Made by a program: the position numbers and the translations under genes
Virus record (IMG/VR): IMGVR_UViG_3300023184_000038
Span: 79,666 to 143,665 of that record
Source of the DNA: a virus
DNA: 64,000 nucleotides
Direction: 5' to 3' (one strand)
Shown here: piece after piece, positions 3,029 through 18,468 of the stretch
Position numbering within the stretch: the first letter of the stretch is position 1
Layout: each line of letters starts with the position of its first letter
The notes under the pieces: generated by a model
Database searches by the model: none
Told to the model about the DNA's origin: nothing
The model's input: the letters and a program-made list of their open reading frames with translations, nothing else

Positions 3029-3397
3029 ATGATAAAGAACATTAATCGTCACGGTAAGTATATGGATGTAATTGGCGTTAATACTAACAATCACATTGTT
3101 ACCTACGGTGGAGCACAAGGTGTAGGCAATCTAAGATTCAATACTAATAATCAAAATATGGAAATATATGACGGTAATAGTTGGGCTGCACTCCATATGG
3201 GATATGTTACGGTAGGACTAACTCCTGACGCAGAATCATTACTTGATTGGGCTAGAAAAAAGCGTGATGAAGAAATGGAATTAGAAGCACTAGCCGAAAC
3301 TAATTCTACTATCAAAGACTTGATGGATACTATTAAGCAAAAGCAAGAACAATTAGAAATAGTTAAAATCTTGATTGAGAAAGAAGTAACAGTTTGA
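3029..3397 (+). CDS. Hypothetical protein (GNLRFN..MEIYDG motif, C-terminal coiled coil)
   Basis: ORF in operon, overlaps next gene. Confidence 0.65.
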   Translation: MIKNINRHGKYMDVIGVNTNNHIVTYGGAQGVGNLRFNTNNQNMEIYDGNSWAALHMGYVTVGLTPDAESLLDWARKKRDEEMELEALAETNSTIKDLMDTIKQKQEQLEIVKILIEKEVTV

Positions 3398-5010
3398 AAC
3401 AAGACAATCTTTCAGCAAAGCATAACCCAGAGTGGGCATTGTTCTTACCCGCAGTCAGTAGTTTTTACATTGCTGGTTTGGGTAAGCAACGCAAGGGCCA
3501 GAATTATTTTGACCAAGCACGAATCCCTGCAAGTTTTAATGGTGATGTAGAGAAACTAAACTTTCTTAACAGTAAAGAAGGTCTTTACTATTACAAGTGG
3601 GGACTATACAGTGCTGGTCACGCTAATTTAGATACAACCGTTGATGATCCTAATGAATCTGTCATACGTGAACGTGAAGCAGGTACTTTCATGTTGGGAG
3701 ATAGTGGTGGATTTCAAATTTTAAAAGGTCAATGGCCAGCAGATTGGAAAGATCCTAACTGTCCTCGTGCTATGAAAAAACGTAAAGCAGTATTGAAATG
3801 GATGGATACATACATGGATTACGGTATGTGTTTAGATATCCCAAGTCAATCTGAATTTACTTATCATTTACAAGATAAGAACGGGGTTTCATTGCATGGT
3901 ATAAAAAAGATTGAGGAAGCTATTACTGCCACTCACATTAATAATGAATATTTCATTGCAAATCGTTCGGGCAAATGTAAGTTTTTAAATGTATTACAGG
4001 GGCGTGATCATACTGCTAGTGGCACTTGGTATGCTGAAATGAAAAAGTATTGCGACCCAACTATATATCCAGAAAATCATTTTAATGGATGGGCGTTTGG
4101 TGGTCAGGTAAAAATTGACCCGCATTTGATGTTAACAAGGATGGTAGATATTATCCATGACGGATTGCTACAAGAAGGTAAACACGATTTGATTCATTGT
4201 TTGGGTACAAGTATATTGGAATATGCAGTATTGTTTACTGATATACAAAAGGCAATTCGTAAATATCACAATCCAAAACTTCAAATTACATTTGATTGTG
4301 CAAGCCCATTCTTTGCCGCTGCTAAAGGGTTGGCATATTTCAATACTAATATTGAACATAATAAAAAATGGTCCTATAGCATGGAAAAGACAGCAGAGAA
4401 AAAGTCTTATGCTAATGATACTCGCAAGTTTAGGGACGCTGTATTATCTGAAAACATCCATAAAGTGTTTACAGATAGTCCAGTAACTGATATACTTACA
4501 CTTAAGGATTTGTGCTATCGTGGTCAGGGGTTTATAGGTCAACATGGTAAAGAAACTAAAACAAGTTGGGATACATTGAGTTATACATTGCTTCAAAGTC
4601 ATAATGTTTGGATGCATATGAATGCAGTTCAAGAAGCCAATCGTAAATATGAAATAGGTTTAATTCCAAAAATGTTGTCTCATCAGTTTGAGGGTGGTAG
4701 ATTTTTTACAGAATTGGTTGATGAAATCTTTTCAAAAAGTACAAAGCAAGAAGCGGTAGATTTAATTGATAAACATGATAGTTATTGGAAACAATTTCAA
4801 TCAGGTAGTCAGGGCATCAGTGGTAAGAAAACTGATAATTCTAGGACTAAGCATAAGCAATTGTATGAGGAAACGGATGATAGTTATTATCAACAATTTC
4901 AATCAGGTAGTCAGAGCAGCAGTGGTAAAAAAACTGATAATTCTAGGTCGATGTATGATGAATTGTTTGAGGAAGTTAGTAACGATATAAATGAAGTAAT
5001 AGGAAAATAA
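3394..5010 (+). CDS. dpdA: TGT-fold deazaguanine transglycosylase, DpdA family
   Basis: TGT motifs DSGGFQ, CLDIP, LNVLQG, WAFGG, HCLG, TFDCAS; clustered with folE/queD/queE. Confidence 0.8.
   Translation: MKQDNLSAKHNPEWALFLPAVSSFYIAGLGKQRKGQNYFDQARIPASFNGDVEKLNFLNSKEGLYYYKWGLYSAGHANLDTTVDDPNESVIREREAGTFMLGDSGGFQILKGQWPADWKDPNCPRAMKKRKAVLKWMDTYMDYGMCLDIPSQSEFTYHLQDKNGVSLHGIKKIEEAITATHINNEYFIANRSGKCKFLNVLQGRDHTASGTWYAEMKKYCDPTIYPENHFNGWAFGGQVKIDPHLMLTRMVDIIHDGLLQEGKHDLIHCLGTSILEYAVLFTDIQKAIRKYHNPKLQITFDCASPFFAAAKGLAYFNTNIEHNKKWSYSMEKTAEKKSYANDTRKFRDAVLSENIHKVFTDSPVTDILTLKDLCYRGQGFIGQHGKETKTSWDTLSYTLLQSHNVWMHMNAVQEANRKYEIGLIPKMLSHQFEGGRFFTELVDEIFSKSTKQEAVDLIDKHDSYWKQFQSGSQGISGKKTDNSRTKHKQLYEETDDSYYQQFQSGSQSSSGKKTDNSRSMYDELFEEVSNDINEVIGK
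4775..4974 (+). repeat. 102-bp imperfect tandem duplication in DpdA C-terminus
   Basis: DSY..QFQSGSQ..SGKKTDNSR occurs twice with 102-nt period. Confidence 0.9.
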
Positions 5011-5903: not shown

Positions 5904-6110
5904 ATGGCAAAACTAACTTTTCAACCTAATCCCCGCGTTCAACAACTATTTGAGGATCTTGATAAATTTAAAGAATTTTGTGTCAATTTTGGATACAAAT
6001 ATGATGAGTCAGAATTATATGACATGCGTAGTTATGCATGTAGACAATTTAATAAATTCATTACCGGTAAGGTTCCTAAAGACCAATGGCAGGAAAACGC
6101 TCGTCCATGA
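5904..6110 (+). CDS. Hypothetical protein
   Basis: ATG 5904, ATGA overlap with next gene. Confidence 0.6.
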   Translation: MAKLTFQPNPRVQQLFEDLDKFKEFCVNFGYKYDESELYDMRSYACRQFNKFITGKVPKDQWQENARP

Positions 6111-6544
6111 AAATAGTGTTGGTCACTGGTGGATTTGATCCTCTGCACAGTGGTCACATTGAGTACTTTAGGTCTGCCAAGAGTCTAGGTGATCAACTAA
6201 TTGTGGGTTTGAACAGTGACGAATGGTTGGCTCGTAAAAAGGGTCAACCTTTTATGCCGCTAAGTGAACGCAGAATTATAGTTGGCAATCTTAAAGACGT
6301 TACTGCAACAATCGTGTACAATGATGACAATGGTTCTAGTTGCAAAGCAATAGAACAATTACTACTACATTGTAGTCCAGATGATGAATTAATTTTTGCA
6401 AACGGCGGTGATAGAACTAAAGAAAATATACCCGAAATGAGTATAACTGATAGTAGAGTAAAATTTATGTTTGGGGTCGGTGGAGAAAACAAGATAAATT
6501 CCAGCAGCTGGATTTTACGCCAATGGGACAAATGGAAGAACTAA
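6107..6544 (+). CDS. HIGH-family cytidylyl/adenylyltransferase (RfaE domain II/TagD-like)
   Basis: TGGFDPLHSGH, VGLNSD, FANGGDR, NSSSWIL. Confidence 0.88.
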   Translation: MKIVLVTGGFDPLHSGHIEYFRSAKSLGDQLIVGLNSDEWLARKKGQPFMPLSERRIIVGNLKDVTATIVYNDDNGSSCKAIEQLLLHCSPDDELIFANGGDRTKENIPEMSITDSRVKFMFGVGGENKINSSSWILRQWDKWKN

Positions 6545-7719
6545 TGAGAAAACTATATTACATGGGGCTTGAGCCCTACAAAGCAAGATACACCCTGCAG
6601 TTACAAGACTGGAATGAAACTGTATTCAAGAAAAGAAAACTTGATTATGTAATTGTGCCCGGCGAAACTCTTAGCAATGATCAAGCAATTGTAACAGGTC
6701 AAGTATTAGATGCACATGGTCGTACATACTTTGGTATGTCACAACTGATGAATTTAATCAAAATGATGAAGGCTGGAGAATTAACCAATGAAGATGTTAT
6801 TTACTTTGAGGATATGTTTCAGCCTGGAATCGAAAGCCTCCCGTATATTCTTAAGCAAATCGGTTCTGCTCACCGGCCTAGGATTTATGTTCGCTGTCTT
6901 GCTCAGTCCATTGATCCTGATGATTTTGTTCATGTATGGGGTATGCAACATTTCATGGGACATTATGAAAAAATGGTGGACTCGTTTGTAGATGGTGTAC
7001 TTGCTACTAATGAAGAAATGGTAATGCACATGAAGATTGCAGGTTGGAAGGCTCCGATCTACAATATCAGTGGATTAGCATTCGGCAAGGCAGAAGTACA
7101 AAGTCGTGTTACTGATATTAAACCATTTGCTGATCGTAAATACCGTGTAGTATTCTCTGCACGTTGGGATCAAGAGAAGCAGCCCGATTTTTATATGGAT
7201 TTGATAGAAGCATGGCATGCTCAACCTGGATTGGAAGAAGTTGAATTTTGTGTATGTAGTGGTAGTTTGTTGAAATCAAATAACGAAAGTTATATGACTC
7301 GTACCCGTGAGTTGTTTCTTGCCGGCAAACTTAAAATATATGAAAACTTAGAAAAAAATGATTACTATACTATCGTTAATGATAGTCGTGTTGTGTTTAA
7401 TTGCGCCCTTCAAGATTGGGTTTCCAACACAGTCAGTGAAGCAGATAGTCTTGGGTGTAATGTTTTATACCCTGCTTATCGGTCTTTCCCTGAAACTTTT
7501 TCTAATGACCATACCAGACTTTATGTCCCTTGGAGTATAGAGGATGCTATGGATAAGTTGGAAGCGTTATTGGACTTCCCTCACCCAAGAATGGGAGAGA
7601 TCAGTGACTACAATAATGGTACAATTGATCGTATCATTGATATTTTAGAAGGTGGTGGACAGAGTATGTTGAGAATGTCCACTGATTATAGAAAACATAC
7701 CCGCGAATCAAAATATTAA
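6544..7719 (+). CDS. GT-B glycosyltransferase
   Basis: ARWDQEKQP and QDWVSNTVSEA..GC..YP..RSFPE donor-binding motifs. Confidence 0.75.
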   Translation: MRKLYYMGLEPYKARYTLQLQDWNETVFKKRKLDYVIVPGETLSNDQAIVTGQVLDAHGRTYFGMSQLMNLIKMMKAGELTNEDVIYFEDMFQPGIESLPYILKQIGSAHRPRIYVRCLAQSIDPDDFVHVWGMQHFMGHYEKMVDSFVDGVLATNEEMVMHMKIAGWKAPIYNISGLAFGKAEVQSRVTDIKPFADRKYRVVFSARWDQEKQPDFYMDLIEAWHAQPGLEEVEFCVCSGSLLKSNNESYMTRTRELFLAGKLKIYENLEKNDYYTIVNDSRVVFNCALQDWVSNTVSEADSLGCNVLYPAYRSFPETFSNDHTRLYVPWSIEDAMDKLEALLDFPHPRMGEISDYNNGTIDRIIDILEGGGQSMLRMSTDYRKHTRESKY

Positions 7720-8392: not shown

Positions 8393-9070
8393 ATGAGTTA
8401 TAATAAAACAAAAACAGATCCAGAGTTGGGTCAAAAAGTTCATCAACACTTAGTTAAAATGGGAGTTGAAACTCCTACAAAAAAATCACCGATTTCAGAT
8501 CGTAAAGACAAGATTGCAGTAATTGAACCATTGTTTGCTGAAATTATGAAAACATTAGGTCTTGACTTGAGTGACGATAGTTTATGCGATACTCCAAAGC
8601 GTGTTGCCCGAATGTATGTCAACGAAATCTTTTGGGGATTAGACTACGATGCATTCCCAAAATGTACCGCAGTTGATAACAAAATGAAATACAACGAAAT
8701 GGTTTGCGAACGTAATATCAATGTACAAAGTAATTGTGAACATCACTTTGTAGTCATCGACGGGCTAGCAACTGTAGCATATGTTCCCAATCAAAAAGTG
8801 CTTGGATTGAGTAAAATCAATCGTATAGTAGAATACTTTAGCAAGCGTCCACAAATACAAGAACGATTGACTGAACAAGTATTTCATGCATTGCAATATA
8901 TCCTTGAAACAGAAGATGTTGCGGTTATGATAGATGCACAACATTATTGTGTTAAAAGCAGGGGAGTTGAGGATACAGGTAGTTCAACCGTTACAAGTAA
9001 ACTTGGTGGTGGATTCAAAAGTGACCCGGCTGCTAGAGCAGAATTTTATCAACTAGCAAGACAGAGATAA
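8393..9070 (+). CDS. folE: GTP cyclohydrolase I
   Basis: [40 protein letters not shown]. Confidence 0.97.
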
Positions 9071-9192: not shown

Positions 9193-9428
9193 TGGGATTT
9201 CGTAAACCAATGGACTACACCAATGTTCATCATCAAATTTATATGGCTGGTGTAGAATTGCATTCTGGTCATAATGACGGATACACTACTTGGGAAATCA
9301 AAAAAGATTTACATCGTATCAAATGGTTATTAGATGAAATCATGGCTGATTCACCTACTTACGCCGACGAAAAAGAATTCTTAGATGAACATTCTAAAGT
9401 AAAGATGTGGAGAACATTAAAAAAATGA
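9192..9428 (+). CDS. Hypothetical protein
   Basis: Overlapping start/stop junctions. Confidence 0.6.
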   Translation: MGFRKPMDYTNVHHQIYMAGVELHSGHNDGYTTWEIKKDLHRIKWLLDEIMADSPTYADEKEFLDEHSKVKMWRTLKK

Positions 9429-9883
9429 TATTCAACAAAATCAAAGAACTAAAAGAGCAAGGGCTTAGAATTGGAATCACTTTTAGCCAGTTTGATTTAC
9501 TTCACGCTGGACATATTGCTATGCTTAGCCAAGCTAAAAATCACTGTGACTATCTTATTGCTGGATTACAAAACAATGCACAGTGGGATCGTCCTGAAAA
9601 GAATGCACCCATTCAAAGTATTGTTGAAAGACAGATTAGTTTAAGTGCAGTGAGATTCGTAGATGAAATTGTAGTTTACAATACAGAAAAAGATTTGGAA
9701 GATATTCTACTTACATTACCCATTGATGTACGAATTTTAGGTGTAGAATACAAAGATAAAGATTTTACCGGTTATGGAATATGCCAACAGCGTAACATTG
9801 AATTAGTGTTCAATGGGCGTGATCACAGTTTTAGTAGTTCAAGTTTGCGTAAAAGAGTAGTTGAAGCAGCAAAGGATAAATAA
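9425..9883 (+). CDS. Glycerol-3-phosphate cytidylyltransferase-like (TagD family)
   Basis: FDLLHAGH, CDYLIAGLQ, VDEIVVY, RDHSFSSSSLRKR. Confidence 0.88.
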   Translation: MIFNKIKELKEQGLRIGITFSQFDLLHAGHIAMLSQAKNHCDYLIAGLQNNAQWDRPEKNAPIQSIVERQISLSAVRFVDEIVVYNTEKDLEDILLTLPIDVRILGVEYKDKDFTGYGICQQRNIELVFNGRDHSFSSSSLRKRVVEAAKDK

Positions 9884-9958
9884 TATAACCGGTCTCTTAT
9901 GGGCTCATCCCGGTATAAAAATTCTGCGTCCTATGCTATAATAACATAGGAGAACAAC
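9876..9958 (+). promoter_or_regulatory. Late-type promoter plus riboswitch-like structured leader of queD
   Basis: ATAAATA 9876-82; stem ACCGG/CCGGT 9888-9914, A-rich tail; TCCTATG/CATAGGA stem masks SD. Confidence 0.5.
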
Positions 9959-10435
9959 ATGGCAAAATATATTTCAACAAAGACCTATAATCAACTAGGT
10001 CCGGTTGCATATCGTCAATGGCGTGCAGACAGTCATTGTAATTTAATACACGGATATGCATTAAGTTTTCATTTAGAATTTGAATGTGATACACTTGACG
10101 CACGTAATTGGTGCATGGACTTTGGTGGTTTAAAACCGTTAAAAGGCTTATTAGAAGATTGGTTTGATCACACTCTATTAGTGGCACAAGATGATCCAAT
10201 GCGTGAACATTTACTAAACTTGGGTAAGTTAAAACTAGCAAAGATAACTGAAGTAGAAAAGACTGGATGTGAGGGAATTGCAGCCTTTTTGTACGAATAT
10301 ATTAATACCATCTTTTTACCTAATTACGGTGAGAAAGACCGAGTATGGTGTAGTAAAGTAGAAGTCAGAGAAACAGATAGTAATATGGCTATGCGAGTGG
10401 GTCATAGAGAAGATAATGAATATCTAAATGATTGA
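9959..10435 (+). CDS. queD: 6-carboxy-5,6,7,8-tetrahydropterin synthase
   Basis: SHCNLIHGY, DFGGLK, FDHTLL, GCE, VEVRET. Confidence 0.92.
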   Translation: MAKYISTKTYNQLGPVAYRQWRADSHCNLIHGYALSFHLEFECDTLDARNWCMDFGGLKPLKGLLEDWFDHTLLVAQDDPMREHLLNLGKLKLAKITEVEKTGCEGIAAFLYEYINTIFLPNYGEKDRVWCSKVEVRETDSNMAMRVGHREDNEYLND

Positions 10436-11105
10436 TATACAGTATATTAATAGCAATGTTGCAATGTCCGATATAGTTGCCGACATTGTTGAATATACTA
10501 TTAAACATTCTATTGGCCCTTGCAAAATTGCATTTCCTACAGGTAATACACCCATAGAAATGTATGCCAACTTAGTATTACGTCCAATCAATTGGGAAAA
10601 CACATATAGTTTTCAATTAGATGAATATGTGGGGCTACCTAACGGTCATCCCAAGCTGTATACTCAATTTATGTATGAACATTTATATTCTAAAGTAAAT
10701 ATTAATCAATTGCATATATTTTCTCCAATACTTAATATTAACTATGATAACATTATTAATACTCACGGTGGATTAGATTTAGCAATATTGGGATTGGGGC
10801 ACAACGGACATATAGCCTTTAATGAACCGGGTTCGGAATTTAATTCAGTTACTCGGCAAATTGTGTTGGAAGAATCCACTAGAGTAAACAATAGTAAATG
10901 GTTTAAATCGTTAAATGAAGTTCCAACTACTGCAATGACAATGGGATTGTCTACTATAATGAGTGCCAGACATATTGTATTAATGGTACAAGGTATTAAT
11001 AAATTTACAATGCTTAAACAAGCACTATGGGGCAAAAGAACTGAACATATTCCATGTAGTGTACTTCAAACTCATTCTAATATTAAAGTATTATATTGTG
11101 ATTAA
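10428..11105 (+). CDS. nagB: Glucosamine-6-phosphate deaminase
   Basis: PTGNTP, LDEYVGL, ILGLGHNGHIAFNEPG, AMTMGLSTI. Confidence 0.9.
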   Translation: MIDIQYINSNVAMSDIVADIVEYTIKHSIGPCKIAFPTGNTPIEMYANLVLRPINWENTYSFQLDEYVGLPNGHPKLYTQFMYEHLYSKVNINQLHIFSPILNINYDNIINTHGGLDLAILGLGHNGHIAFNEPGSEFNSVTRQIVLEESTRVNNSKWFKSLNEVPTTAMTMGLSTIMSARHIVLMVQGINKFTMLKQALWGKRTEHIPCSVLQTHSNIKVLYCD

Positions 11106-11186: not shown

Positions 11187-12035
11187 ATGGCAAAATTAAA
11201 AGTAGCAGAACTCTTCTATAGTATACAGGGAGAAGGTAGATATATGGGTGTCCCTTCAGTCTTTCTACGCACATTTGGATGTAACTTCAAATGTGCAGGA
11301 TTTGGTATGCCTAAGGGTGAACTAAGTCGTGAAGTAGAAGATATTGCTGCCAATATACATTTATATAATCAGTATACGCAACTTCCATTAGTTAGTACTG
11401 GATGCGATAGTTATGCTAGTTGGGATCCAAGATTCAAAGACTTGAGTCCAGTACTTACTACTGATAGTATTGTTGACAGTATTATGTCTATGCTTCCACA
11501 CAATCGTTGGATGGAAGAACATCTGGTTATCACAGGAGGTGAACCTTTACTAGGATGGCAGCGTAGTTATATTGATTTACTTTCACATGACAAGATGAAA
11601 GGGTTACAAGAACTAACTTTTGAAACAAATGGTACTCAATCTCTACAACAAGAATTGAAAAGTTATTTGCAGCAGTGGGGAATTAATCGTTCTAGAGGTG
11701 CAATTACATTTAGTGTTAGTCCTAAACTTAGTATTAGTGGTGAGAAGTGGGAAGAAGCAATATGTCCTGACATCATTAATGAGTACTCACAAACGGGTCG
11801 TACATATTTAAAGTTTGTTGTTGCAACTAAACAAGATGTAGAGGAAGCACAAACAGCCGTTAATCAATATCGTACTAATGGATTTAGAGGGCATGTGTAT
11901 TTGATGCCATGTGGTGGCGTTGAAAGTGTGTATAACTTGAATGCAAAAAATGTTGCACTTGAAGCAATGCGTTTAGGCTGGCGTTATAGTGATAGACTTC
12001 AAGTCCCACTGTTCAAAAACGAGTGGGGAACTTGA
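11187..12035 (+). CDS. queE: 7-carboxy-7-deazaguanine synthase (radical SAM)
   Basis: ELFYSIQGEG, FLRTFGCNFKC...GCDS, ITGGEP, ETNGT, VSPK. Confidence 0.93.
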   Translation: MAKLKVAELFYSIQGEGRYMGVPSVFLRTFGCNFKCAGFGMPKGELSREVEDIAANIHLYNQYTQLPLVSTGCDSYASWDPRFKDLSPVLTTDSIVDSIMSMLPHNRWMEEHLVITGGEPLLGWQRSYIDLLSHDKMKGLQELTFETNGTQSLQQELKSYLQQWGINRSRGAITFSVSPKLSISGEKWEEAICPDIINEYSQTGRTYLKFVVATKQDVEEAQTAVNQYRTNGFRGHVYLMPCGGVESVYNLNAKNVALEAMRLGWRYSDRLQVPLFKNEWGT

Positions 12036-12280: not shown

Positions 12281-12456
12281 AGTTTGAAATGCGTTGGCTT
12301 GTGGTTGAGGCGCCATCTGGCCCTGAAAAGATATTGCAATATCGTTATGAAAGAGAAATAACAGATTACAGTATAGAAAACCCAAGAACAGGATCCTTTG
12401 TTAAAAGAAATGAGTTAACTGATTGGATTACTGTTACAACAGTAGATGAGGTATAA
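12277..12456 (+). CDS. Hypothetical protein (59 aa, not in ORF track)
   Basis: MKFEMRWLVVEAPSGPEKILQYRY...; ATGA overlap, fills gap. Confidence 0.55.
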   Translation: MKFEMRWLVVEAPSGPEKILQYRYEREITDYSIENPRTGSFVKRNELTDWITVTTVDEV

Positions 12457-12457
12457 A

Positions 12458-13819
12458 ATGCGAACATATAATAAACGAATAGCATTTCTAATTAGTGACC
12501 AGCATTTTATTACGCATGGTGGGATAGGGCAGTTTGCTAAAGGTTTTACTGAATTAGGAGACCGCATCAATTGGAAAGTTGACATTATCTTAGACAAAGA
12601 ACCAACAAACGATTTATCTATACTAGTTAAATCATTGGGTGCAAATATCATATATACAGATTCTGGTCTACGCTATTCTGACCATACTGCTACGTTTGCT
12701 TTTAAAGATAGTATTAATTTTGAAAAAATGGTTAATTTCAGAAAAAGCATTATGCTTGCGTTAGAAACTAATATTTATGATATGATTATTTGTAACACGC
12801 AAGAAGCAATGAGTGCAGCATATTCTATGGGGTTAGGAAAATATATTCCAGTAGTATTTTACACACATTCGTATAGTATGGTTTTTAGAGATGAGCAAGA
12901 TTTTAGTGATGTTTGTATAGATGAATATCATAACTTTTTCAATAAGCATATGGAACTATCTCATAGTTTTGTTGGAACTCAAAGTCAAAAGAATGTTGAT
13001 GAGATGACTAAGTATGGTGCAAAGAATGTATCACTATTGCGTATGCCATTAAGTGAACGAGAATTGTTAGTACGCAATGATAATCCGCGCAAAGGTGTAT
13101 TGTTTATTGGACGATGGGAAGAACGAAAAAATCCAGAAGCATATATTCGTGTTATGAAAGAATGTAAATTGCCTTGCAGAGTAATGACCAATAAAACAGG
13201 TGCTAAAAAATTTGAAAAAGCATTTGCTGATAATAACATCACAGATTATGAAATCAAAATAAGTATTATTGGCAAAGAAAAAGTAGATTTTATTAAAAGT
13301 TGTAGTGTATTTTTTATGCCAGCATTAGGAGAAAACTATCCGTTTGCGTTTAGTGAATGTTTGGGACATATGCCATGTGTTGTGTTAGATAATCAAGATT
13401 GGTCTAATAATTTTGACGAAAAATATTTTTATAAAGAAAAATTAAACAATGTATCAATGTTAATTCAACGATTATACAATACTACAAATTACTACGATAC
13501 CGGAGCATTAGAATATATTAAATTACTAGATGACGATACCGCTATAGGCTGGATAAAATTTTTAGATAAGTTTGTTTCTAAAAAAAGTAATACTAATTCA
13601 GCAAAAATAAATTCGACAGAAACAGTATGTTATCAAGACTATATTAAAGAATTAAACAGAGGGCATTTAGCCCGTGAAGATATTGAAAGTGTATTGGCAA
13701 ATCGTCATAAATTTATTATCAATGTATATACAGATGATAATACGTATTTAAGTAAAGATCCAAAATTTAAGCCAATAGAAGAACAGTCACCTAGTGTGTC
13801 ATTATTTGAATGGGTATGA
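12458..13819 (+). CDS. Glycosyltransferase family 4-like
   Basis: N-terminal HGGIGQF, LFIGRWEERKNP, PALGENYPFAFSE (Ex7E). Confidence 0.85.
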   Translation: MRTYNKRIAFLISDQHFITHGGIGQFAKGFTELGDRINWKVDIILDKEPTNDLSILVKSLGANIIYTDSGLRYSDHTATFAFKDSINFEKMVNFRKSIMLALETNIYDMIICNTQEAMSAAYSMGLGKYIPVVFYTHSYSMVFRDEQDFSDVCIDEYHNFFNKHMELSHSFVGTQSQKNVDEMTKYGAKNVSLLRMPLSERELLVRNDNPRKGVLFIGRWEERKNPEAYIRVMKECKLPCRVMTNKTGAKKFEKAFADNNITDYEIKISIIGKEKVDFIKSCSVFFMPALGENYPFAFSECLGHMPCVVLDNQDWSNNFDEKYFYKEKLNNVSMLIQRLYNTTNYYDTGALEYIKLLDDDTAIGWIKFLDKFVSKKSNTNSAKINSTETVCYQDYIKELNRGHLAREDIESVLANRHKFIINVYTDDNTYLSKDPKFKPIEEQSPSVSLFEWV

Positions 13820-14652
13820 TGAAAAAAGTATTAATAACAGGTAATTCAGGTTATATCGGTAGTCATCTTTCCAAGATGTTAGCAGATTCTTATGAAGTAT
13901 ATGGGTTAGATATTACCCTTCCACAGACAGATCGGCTTAAAGATTGGTATAATATTGATATTCGTAAATTATTTACTATTGACCAAGAATTTGATGCAGT
14001 AATACATTTAGCAGCCTTAGTTAATGTAGGTGAAAGTGAGCAGCAACCCATAAGTTATTATATTACCAATTTGAATGGGACGATGAATGTCATCAATAAG
14101 ATTAAGACAAAGAATTTTATTTTTGCAAGTACTGGCGCAGCAGCGGGATGTGAGAGTGCATATGGTATTAGTAAACGTGCTGCGGAAGATGTGGTGCGTG
14201 AATATTGCACTATACATAATCCCAAAGATTACACAATATTTAGGTTCTATAACGTAATTGGTAGTGATGGTTTTTTGCCAACTAATCCAGACGGGTTGAT
14301 GTATAATTTAATGAAATCAAAAGAAAAGGGCGAATTTACTATTTTTGGGAATGACTATGATACCCGAGATGGAACTTGCATACGTGATTATGTACATGTT
14401 AATGAGATATGTGAAGCATTAGGTAGTGCTATTGAGAGGCCAAGTAATCAAATAGAATGTTTAGGGCATGGAGTAGGTTATACTGTTGCCGAGATAGTTA
14501 ATACGTTCAAAAAAGTAAACAATATACCTAATATTAATTTACTTACTAAGATAGGTCCAAGAAGAAAGGGTGACTTAGCAGTATCTGTATTAGATAATGT
14601 GTCACCCTATATGAAGAATCTTTATACTTTAGAGCAGTTACTTAAAGTTTAA
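13816..14652 (+). CDS. galE: NAD-dependent epimerase, UDP-glucose 4-epimerase-like
   Basis: TGNSGYIGS, HLAA, YGISK, DGTCIRDYVHV. Confidence 0.85.
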   Translation: MMKKVLITGNSGYIGSHLSKMLADSYEVYGLDITLPQTDRLKDWYNIDIRKLFTIDQEFDAVIHLAALVNVGESEQQPISYYITNLNGTMNVINKIKTKNFIFASTGAAAGCESAYGISKRAAEDVVREYCTIHNPKDYTIFRFYNVIGSDGFLPTNPDGLMYNLMKSKEKGEFTIFGNDYDTRDGTCIRDYVHVNEICEALGSAIERPSNQIECLGHGVGYTVAEIVNTFKKVNNIPNINLLTKIGPRRKGDLAVSVLDNVSPYMKNLYTLEQLLKV

Positions 14653-16873: not shown

Positions 16874-18468
16874 TGTTCATCCTTCATCAGGAACCCTAGT
16901 TTTTTCATGGCTGTCAGATAGGCTCTCCACAATTTATCAGGCCAACCGGTTGGTCGTTCGTAAGTCTTTCCGTCTACGGTTGCACGTTTTGGTAAAGGGC
17001 CAATATCTTGCACTGGATCTCCTGATTTACCCCAGGGCTTGTCGGTTGCTGCAACTGCCAGTGCTGGCAATTGACCAGACATAGCCTTCTCTCTAAGGTC
17101 TTCTATACCATCTATTGTTGCTTTTATATCTACTTTTAAATCGGCATCAGTAGTATCTAGTCCAAAATAACGCACAAGTATAGGCAACTGTTTTTTAATT
17201 ATATCAACATCTTCTTTTGATATAAATCCAGCTGCTACAGCCTGTCCAACTGTACCTGCCTGCCCGGCTCCGCCTTCAGGTCCTCCGCCAGGCACACCGC
17301 CTTCAGGTCCTCCGCCAGGCACACCGCCTTCAGGTCCTCCGCCAGGCACACCGCCTTCAGGTCCTCCGGGAGGTTTATCTTCTGGTTTTTCTTCTTTGTT
17401 ATTCCACCAGTCCCATAATGCTTTACCACCTTCATATGCTCCCCATAAGCCTAATCCCACGCTTCCAGCTTTTCCTAACTTACCAAGACCACTACCAATA
17501 CTACGCATTGGATTACGGGCAGCAGCTGCTGCGGTCCGTCTAGCAGTTGATTGAGCTGTAATTGCTGCCCTTCTAGCTGCCTGGGCTGCTCTATTCCTAG
17601 CGCCGGGACTGCCACCTCGGACTAGTCTACCAAGTCCCCGAACTAACGGAGCAATAAATTCATTTAATTGTTCTGGCTTATTTTCAATTAAAATAGTAAA
17701 AATTCTAATTTGTTCAGCAGGTGAAAATTCATGTAGATTTTCAGATATCAGCCTACGTTTGAGAGTATTTCTACTTTCTGTTGTTACCTTATATTTTTTA
17801 AGAATATTGTTTAATTGAGTCAATGCAGTAGTTAAATCAGCGGCAGGGCCGATATCTTTATCTGCATTTCCTGATTTACCCCTAAGATTGCCCGCTGCTG
17901 CAGCACCTGCTGCACCACCTGCAGTATTTGCACCCGCCTCGGCATCCATTCTATCAGCAATTCGTTCAGCTTGTGCTGCTGCGTCCGGTGCTTGATTTGC
18001 TGTAGTTGATGAATCAGTAGAAGAGTTTCCTGCTTGATTTGGTGTATCTGAGGAATCAGTAGAAGAGTTTCCTGCTTGATTTGGTGTATCTGGGTAAGGT
18101 TCAAACTTGTAAGGGGCAGAGTCAGTGCCGGGCCCAGGATCTTTACCGGCTTGGTTAGTTCCCGAAACACCGCGGCTAGTACCAAACGTTCCAAAATTAG
18201 AAGAAGCATTGTTAGGAGATGTGCTAAATATTGGTTCATCTGGCTTTCCACCAACTACACTCTTAACTGTATTCAAGTTGCTTGTACCAACGTTTAGTTC
18301 TTTTGCTTTTGCTTGATCGTCGGGGTCTTTAAAATAACTTAGTGGAGGCTTTTCACCGGGCATTCTGGCTAAAATATACGGATCTTTACGGTCTGCATTA
18401 CCCAACCATTTTTCTTGTTCGGGAGTAGGAGTCCATTCTTCCCGCAAAATTAATTCATTTATTTTCAT
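16870..18468 (-). CDS. Low-complexity late protein, probable internal head/ejected protein
   Basis: MKINELILREE N-terminus; GATAAATA late box at 18488-95; multiple I/LxE sites; Gly/Ala-rich amphipathic region. Confidence 0.6.
   Translation of the reverse strand: MKINELILREEWTPTPEQEKWLGNADRKDPYILARMPGEKPPLSYFKDPDDQAKAKELNVGTSNLNTVKSVVGGKPDEPIFSTSPNNASSNFGTFGTSRGVSGTNQAGKDPGPGTDSAPYKFEPYPDTPNQAGNSSTDSSDTPNQAGNSSTDSSTTANQAPDAAAQAERIADRMDAEAGANTAGGAAGAAAAGNLRGKSGNADKDIGPAADLTTALTQLNNILKKYKVTTESRNTLKRRLISENLHEFSPAEQIRIFTILIENKPEQLNEFIAPLVRGLGRLVRGGSPGARNRAAQAARRAAITAQSTARRTAAAAARNPMRSIGSGLGKLGKAGSVGLGLWGAYEGGKALWDWWNNKEEKPEDKPPGGPEGGVPGGGPEGGVPGGGPEGGVPGGGPEGGAGQAGTVGQAVAAGFISKEDVDIIKKQLPILVRYFGLDTTDADLKVDIKATIDGIEDLREKAMSGQLPALAVAATDKPWGKSGDPVQDIGPLPKRATVDGKTYERPTGWPDKLWRAYLTAMKKLGFLMKDEQ
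17270..17368 (-). repeat. 27-bp tandem repeat (GGPEGGVPG, ~3.7 copies)
   Basis: ccgccttcaggtcctccgccaggcaca repeated. Confidence 0.95.
18011..18092 (-). repeat. 42-bp tandem duplication (DTPNQAGNSSTDSS x2)
   Basis: gaatcagtagaagagtttcctgcttgatttggtgtatctg occurs twice. Confidence 0.9.

Follow-up and report, generated by a model that had tools for sequence, protein, structure and literature searches.

The queD gene encodes the committed step of 7-deazaguanine synthesis, a pathway which phages use for restriction-resistant DNA. In an uncultured lake phage a queD-like gene is preceded by a leader of 75 bases, in which a first reading, made from the letters of the DNA and referred to below as the sequence-only reading, had placed a late promoter, a pseudoknot like that of the class I preQ1 riboswitches and a translational ON switch. 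The questions raised by this locus are whether the leader carries a regulatory RNA, whether this RNA belongs to a known family and what it may sense. New classes of riboswitch are, to our knowledge, seldom found, and those encoded by phages still less often.

The queD locus

The DNA analysed is a stretch of 64,000 nucleotides, here called the window, which is part of the 143.7-kb IMG/VR virus record of this phage (CheckV completeness 41%). Between 2017 and 2025 the phage turns up repeatedly in metagenomes from lakes and fresh water. Features of the window are listed in Table 1. In addition to its Pfam match, the 9959-10435 ORF matches the PHROG family "QueD-like 6-pyruvoyl-tetrahydropterin synthase" (2e-41), and it clusters with folE (8393-9070) and with a QueE-like radical-SAM gene (11187-12035). 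Sugar-activation genes are interleaved with folE, queD and queE between 6086 and 14652 (+ strand), and this gene mix suggests a sugar-decorated 7-deazaguanine DNA modification.

Pfam matches to QueC and to the tRNA-guanine transglycosylase (TGT) are absent from the 143.7-kb record, itself 41% complete, in agreement with the earlier remark that no queC was seen. Among five long relatives two are near-complete, one of 353 kb at 98% and one of 382 kb at 100%, and in these genomes there is likewise neither a canonical full-length QueC nor a TGT Pfam match, the only related ORFs being divergent QueC-like ones. They encode PP-loop proteins far from queD, one of 217 aa at 32 bits (G004:C1:271451-272104; L326 152-805) and one of 310 aa at 25 bits (G003; L327 28-960).

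Just 3' of the family-B DNA polymerase gene, the window carries a 538-aa ORF (3394-5010, + strand) without Pfam or PHROG match, although over 6,000 close homologues occur in metagenomes. We take its invariant LGDSGGFQ to resemble the TGT signature, and the feature neighbours of the ORF in the ESM Atlas include TGT-like (score 0.92) and DpdA (0.87) clusters. The AlphaFold model is poor (mean pLDDT 49), and a search of PDB sequences with the profile of this ORF found nothing. The protein may be a divergent DNA transglycosylase of the DpdA type.

Table 1. Features of the queD leader and of the surrounding genes, in window coordinates.
Feature	Position	Strand	Remark
ATAAATA box, T4-type late-promoter-like	9876-9882	+	overlaps stop codon of upstream cytidylyltransferase-like gene
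P1 5' strand ACCGG	9888-9892	+	pairs with 9910-9914; P1 also predicted independently by RNAalifold
L1 UCUCUUAU	9893-9900	+	N-C-U, then pyrimidine-rich spacer of variable length
P2 5' strand GGGC ("anti-anti-SD")	9901-9904	+	covaries with 9928-9931
L2 UCAUC	9905-9909	+	U9905, C9906 and C9909 invariant
P1 3' strand CCGGU	9910-9914	+	covariation
A-rich part of L3 AUAAAAAU	9915-9922	+	A9917, A9919 and A9921 invariant
UCUGC block	9923-9927	+	invariant (UCYGC in the family); between A-rich tail and P2
P2 3' strand GUCC	9928-9931	+	overlaps anti-SD arm
Anti-SD arm UCCUAUG of masking hairpin	9929-9935	+	from folding; helix kept by variants in relatives
Hairpin 3' arm CAUAGGA (9945-9951) and Shine-Dalgarno AGGAG (9948-9952)	9945-9952	+	
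queD-like gene (PTPS family, 158 aa)	9959-10435	+	Pfam PTPS 1e-15
Two cytidylyltransferase-like genes	6086-6544, 9407-9883	+	
GT-1-like glycosyltransferase	6523-7719	+	
NagB-like isomerase/deaminase	10428-11105	+	
457-aa ORF	12446-13819	+	no assignment
NAD-dependent epimerase	13810-14652	+	

Structure of the leader

The structural elements of the sequence-only reading could all be read directly from the window. The two strands of P1 close a 17-nt loop (9893-9909) which ends in CAUC, and the tail AUAAAAA follows immediately (9915-9921). The loop GGGC is complementary to the downstream GUCC, with one G-U pair, and forms with it the P2 helix. Before the queD ATG at 9959 a 7-bp hairpin, UCCUAUG with CAUAGGA, masks the Shine-Dalgarno sequence (SD). 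P2 and this hairpin are mutually exclusive, as 9929-9931 are common to both. Folded alone, the leader of the window has a minimum free energy (MFE) of -14 kcal/mol and a z of -0.05 against 200 shuffles, which is no better than chance. An alternative 6-bp pseudoknot register, UAUGGG (9898-9903) with CCUAUG (9930-9935), including two G-U pairs, would take up the anti-SD arm in full, and this register is seen in this leader subtype only.

Conservation and covariation

A protein-anchored QueD search of IMG/VR gave 496 loci, of which the closest 80 (83-98% amino-acid identity) were used. The same leader stands upstream of queD in 60 of these 80, and the covariance model R1 matches these 60 at 31-63 bits and none of the other 20. 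When the 38 distinct queD-anchored leaders were aligned with MAFFT, 92% of the cells fell in standard pairs, against 42-54% after the 3' partners had been slid by one to three columns; the covariation score was 0.55, against 0.17 in shuffles.

IMG/VR was also scanned with a pattern built solely from L2, P1 and L3. At least 120 further viral stretches matched, and about 110 of those listed carry the full motif. A tandem DNA repeat in the window, with a unit like CAGGCACACCGCCTTCAGGTCCTCCGC (17257-17400 in + strand coordinates, within a large minus-strand ORF), is a false match of the motif filter. Over 129 distinct leaders 90% of the cells pair, against 38-52% with partners slid, P1 being paired in 99% and P2 in 82% (99-100% and 82-85% over the 38-leader and 129-leader sets together). 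Both sides change in seven of the ten pairs, namely in two P1 pairs and in all five aligned P2 pairs; the alignment scores 0.50 for covariation, its shuffles 0.15. Among 130 distinct leaders there are six versions of the P1 helix and about 49 of P2. The P1 versions include ACCGG/CCGGU, AGCGG/CCGCU, AGAGG/CCUCU and AGUGG/CCACU in the queD-anchored loci and AUCGG/CCGAU from the pattern scan; P2 occurs for example as GGGC/GUCC, GGCG/CGCC, GGCA/UGCC, GACGC/GUGUC, UGACAU/AUGUCA, UGACUU/AAGUCA and GUGU/ACAC. Covariation across phage queD leaders, which had been named as a check on the proposal, therefore supports both P1 and P2, and on this comparative evidence the H-type pseudoknot in the queD leader is real.

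The putative aptamer is a 44-nt H-type pseudoknot. The order of elements in the family is P1a (5 nt), L1 (N-C-U followed by 0-8 mostly pyrimidine bases), P2a (3-7 nt), L2 (5-7 nt, UCAYC-like and ending in an invariant C), P1b (CCNNU), L3 (8-9 A-rich bases, then UCYGC) and P2b. In 36 queD-anchored motifs L1 starts with UCU (22), ACU (8) or CCU (6), and the base before the invariant C9909 is U (23), C (7) or A (6). Invariant bases in the motif-independent set are those of both G-C pairs at the top of P1, the U-C with which L2 begins, C9909, the alternating A9917, A9919 and A9921, and the U-C-(Y)-G-C of 9923-9927. By analogy with the preQ1-I fold we infer that the A-rich part of L3 contacts the P1 minor groove (PMC11625349). 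The motif filter itself demanded several of the invariant bases, and a possible bias from this was checked with the R1 model and with a collection-wide scan demanding a base other than C at the position of 9909, which gave 64 pattern matches and not one real motif.

Gene association and distribution

The first ORF downstream of the motif is QueD/PTPS in at least 164 of 169 cases, 163 of them in one protein cluster and one a singleton identified by Pfam PTPS. Small ORFs are inserted between the motif and queD in L045 (2823-2999, 58 aa) and L052 (2735-3001, 88 aa), and in L150, L160 and L197 the motif is first followed by a 113-aa cupin and by unknown proteins of 243 and 282 aa. R1 finds the motif once in the window and once in the record as a whole; each of the five long relatives has it once at full length. 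A second, partial match, to the P1 hairpin part alone (19 bits), lies about 620 nt 5' of the full motif in L028/L029 (2309-2335, + strand).

The same pattern gave at least 120 matches in 185,579 species' genomes of bacteria and archaea, and among the matches listed two are real motifs, one on a 5.5-kb MAG contig and the other in a stored locus of 6.3 kb. Going by the matches listed, the motif appears to be essentially phage-only. Among 50,697 cultured-phage records, blastn with two leader types returned chance matches only. The R1 scan of cultured queD loci covered the closest one, that of Acidovorax phage ACP17, leaving out those of the Xanthomonas phages BUDD and X1, and gave no match in ACP17 even with filters off. 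A description of the motif is absent from the full-text literature searched.

Position of the pseudoknot in the transcript

The late promoter of the sequence-only reading corresponds to the ATAAATA box of Table 1, whose TAAATA ends 5 nt before P1; TATAAATA is the T4 late promoter. Of 147 distinct leaders, 62 have a TAAATA box ending 3-13 nt 5' of P1, whereas the rate at random positions is 0.7%; in about 26 other leaders TTGACA-N17-TATAAT-like promoters end 5-12 nt before P1. The box itself and its enrichment stand, and they make a promoter plausible, so that its activity is best called putative. As promoter-like boxes end so close to P1, the pseudoknot probably lies near the 5' end of the mRNA. 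Several studies of lakes and freshwater sediments have metatranscriptome contigs over parts of 9684-10110, with DNA carry-over possible; the contigs over the leader extend through the putative promoter, and contigs of this kind cannot define a 5' end.

Expression platform

The expression platform was folded in isolation, from P2b up to 9 nt past the start codon. In 122 of 135 distinct leaders (58 of SD type, 64 of AUG type) two or more nucleotides of P2b pair with the SD/AUG zone, against 203 of 719 control leaders from the same loci (28%). Blocking P2b raises the MFE of the platform from -7.9 to -3.5 kcal/mol, and that of the controls from -4.2 to -3.3. The designs differ: CCUAUG...CAUAGGAG, as in the window, UGUCAUC...GAUGGCA, in which the AUG is masked, GUCAUUG...CAAUGGC, CACUCC...GGAG and UGUCUUC...GGAGACA. 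In relatives of the window (L151, L185) the variants CCUAUA/UAUAGG and CUCUAUU/AAUAGAG preserve the masking helix. Whatever the design, P2a and the SD or AUG are rivals for one strand, and varied platforms under one logic are the typical look of a riboswitch family.

Since the P2 3' strand is also the anti-SD or anti-AUG strand, formation of the knot should free the ribosome site. The ON wiring proposed in the sequence-only reading thus gains comparative support from 122 of 135 leaders, as a predicted direction of control in vivo. In the window, where P2 has 4 bp (-3.2 kcal/mol as a duplex), sequestering the P2 strands raises the unpaired probability of the SD from 0.17 to 0.41. This opening is modest because P2 shares just 3 nt with the hairpin and the hairpin can be replaced by a weaker helix which covers the AUG.

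Proposed mechanism

The leader combines a conserved structured 5' element with a mutually exclusive expression platform, the two parts by which a riboswitch is generically recognised. Directly established here are the existence of the pseudoknot, the fact that it is conserved and specific to queD, and the mutual exclusion of the two pairings; from these we consider, at a probability of roughly 0.6, that the element is a new phage-specific, preQ1-I-like translational ON riboswitch, with a presumed ligand and a predicted direction in vivo. The invariant unpaired bases, which lie at positions of ligand and P1 contacts in preQ1-I, were counted for this reading.

Positions 9886-9958, approximately, would form the aptamer and the expression platform. 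In the unstabilised state the 7-bp masking hairpin would outcompete the 4-bp P2 and queD translation would be low. A small molecule would fill a pocket between P1 and P2, and its binding would lock the pseudoknot, withdraw the anti-SD strand and expose the ribosome site, turning translation on; in other phages the P2 3' strand would mask the start codon instead of the SD. The invariant C argues for a ligand with a guanine-like Watson-Crick face, which this base would probably read. Such a face is found in preQ0, preQ1, CDG, 7-deazaguanine, guanine nucleotides and pterins, and the candidates we would put forward are H2NTP or another pterin, CDG, 7-deazaguanine and a guanine nucleotide.

A weak point of the ON reading is that it would have an end product activate a biosynthetic gene, the logic of which is not obvious. 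The wiring argues against simple end-product feedback and would fit feed-forward activation by a precursor, for example H2NTP, the product of FolE.

Alternative explanations

The element could be a translational operator for a phage protein, such as QueD, another enzyme of the pathway or a RegA-like repressor, which would shift the balance between knot and hairpin. The pseudoknot in the leader of phage T4 gene 32 is a precedent, and the lineage is T4-like, the closest cultured QueD being that of Acidovorax phage ACP17, which encodes regA. Conserved loops and covarying stems suit a protein site and a ligand pocket equally, and a timing factor explains ON wiring more easily than an end product does. 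However, in layout and invariant positions (specificity C, top P1 G-C pairs, A-rich tail) the element mirrors a small-molecule aptamer that is already known. It has just 44 nt and accompanies a single enzyme of a purine-derived pathway, and a candidate binding protein was not identified. We regard an operator of this kind as unlikely.

Structures at the 5' terminus stabilise mRNAs, and the knot, which the promoter-like boxes place a few nucleotides from the transcript start, could act without ligand, either as a stabiliser which protects the mRNA from RNases that depend on the 5' end or, as a folding device or thermometer, by constitutively keeping the SD partly open. During transcription the knot would form first, ahead of the 3' arm of the hairpin. 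But such a device has no need for an invariant UCYGC, an invariant C and alternating A's, does not require queD specificity, and leaves without purpose the competing SD/AUG mask, kept in 90% of leaders over several platform designs. The chance that this is the whole explanation seems small. Both the operator and the stabiliser explain fewer of the features than the riboswitch does, among them the aptamer-like invariant loop bases, the restriction to queD and the preserved mask.

An ordinary preQ1-I riboswitch which binds preQ1 or preQ0 and is too divergent for the Rfam model could be argued from the 5-bp P1, the pseudoknot with the 3' tail, the C after U, C or A, the AUAAAAA-like tail and the que gene downstream (PMC11625349). 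The Rfam search which the sequence-only reading had called for speaks against it. With cmscan at the gathering score, run on the whole window, Rfam had no family that matched the motif, preQ1 classes included, and for three leader types RF00522 was unmatched even at E<=10, where only chance matches appeared (snoRNAs, Mu-gpT-DE, blv_FSE) and no riboswitch model. The preQ1-I family lacks the UCYGC insertion, the N-C-U of L1 and the variability of the ceiling pair, the P2 3' strand is anti-SD and not SD, which implies the opposite polarity, and the near-complete relatives have only the divergent QueC-like ORFs mentioned above. We give this explanation a slim chance. A last alternative, short complementarities that coincide by chance in an AT-rich spacer, has only the single-sequence fold to speak for it; over more than 150 contigs the leader is conserved and covaries, which refutes this alternative, and its probability is negligible.

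The riboswitch reading can be put more narrowly as a phage-confined new class, descended from preQ1-I or convergent with it, with a remodelled pocket (UCYGC, N-C-U) and a ligand other than preQ1, which turns QueD synthesis on; in this full form we hold it tentatively, at a little under even odds. If it is true, the element would be the first ON-type member of the preQ1-I-like fold and the first riboswitch to gate a viral pathway of DNA-base modification. Should a ligand be bound, phages would meter DNA hypermodification with RNA sensors, the identity of the ligand would reveal which intermediate the phage treats as a signal, and engineering would gain a naturally occurring ON-type form of an aptamer fold which is among the smallest known. 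In size and diversity the family suffices for biochemistry on short synthetic RNAs.

Comparison with known systems

The preQ1 class I riboswitches (RF00522; types I-III, for instance those of B. subtilis queC, T. tengcongensis, C. antarcticum and E. coli) are H-type pseudoknots with a specificity C which follows U (type I) or A (types II and III) just 5' of the P1 3' strand, and with an A-rich L3 docked in the P1 minor groove over a conserved G-C floor; their ligand-bound P2 buries SD bases, or else a terminator is favoured, in the gene-off state, and the 2024 review of preQ1 riboswitches describes gene-off mechanisms exclusively, with no ON wiring (PMC11625349). The phage motif shares with them the small H-type pseudoknot with a 5-bp P1 and with a P2 in which the P1 loop pairs with the 3' tail, the conserved G-C pairs at the top of P1, the A-rich L3 with its AUAAAAA-like start and the association with genes of 7-deazaguanine biosynthesis. 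Its invariant C, found after U, C or A, is directly 5' of the P1 3' strand, so that C9909 takes the position of the preQ1-I specificity cytosine.

In contrast to the U or UU of preQ1-I, the phage L1 is N-C-U plus spacer (first base U, A or C in 22, 8 and 6 motifs), and both L1 and L3 are longer. The A-rich L3 of preQ1-I runs straight into P2, whereas the phage motif inserts the invariant UCYGC, which has no counterpart there, and the pocket-side (ceiling) pair of P2 is variable. From this ceiling pair and the N-C-U of L1 it follows that the phage pocket is not the preQ1-I pocket. The phage P2 3' strand is anti-SD or anti-AUG and not SD, so that ON is predicted where preQ1-I is OFF, and the motif occurs essentially in uncultured phages only and before queD only. 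What stands of the original preQ1-I-like assignment is therefore the H-type pseudoknot and the link to queD; membership in preQ1-I does not, as the Rfam model, the L1 sequence, the junction of L3 with P2 and the polarity all failed, and the leader was not filed there. By analogy, the phage motif may be said to work like a relative of the preQ1-I fold with a remodelled pocket.

The pseudoknot in the leader of phage T4 gene 32 nucleates gp32 binding and represses translation in an autoregulatory manner. Like the queD element, it is a pseudoknot in the 5' leader of an mRNA of a T4-like phage, 5' of the ribosome site, and it controls translation, but it has neither resemblance to a small-molecule aptamer nor anti-SD competition, and the two would not be expected to be alike in sequence. 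As regards the mode of action, there is a likeness to translational ON riboswitches such as adenine add and guanidine-I/II, in which formation of the aptamer likewise removes an SD-masking strand, whereas their folds and ligands are unrelated and the elements themselves are bacterial.
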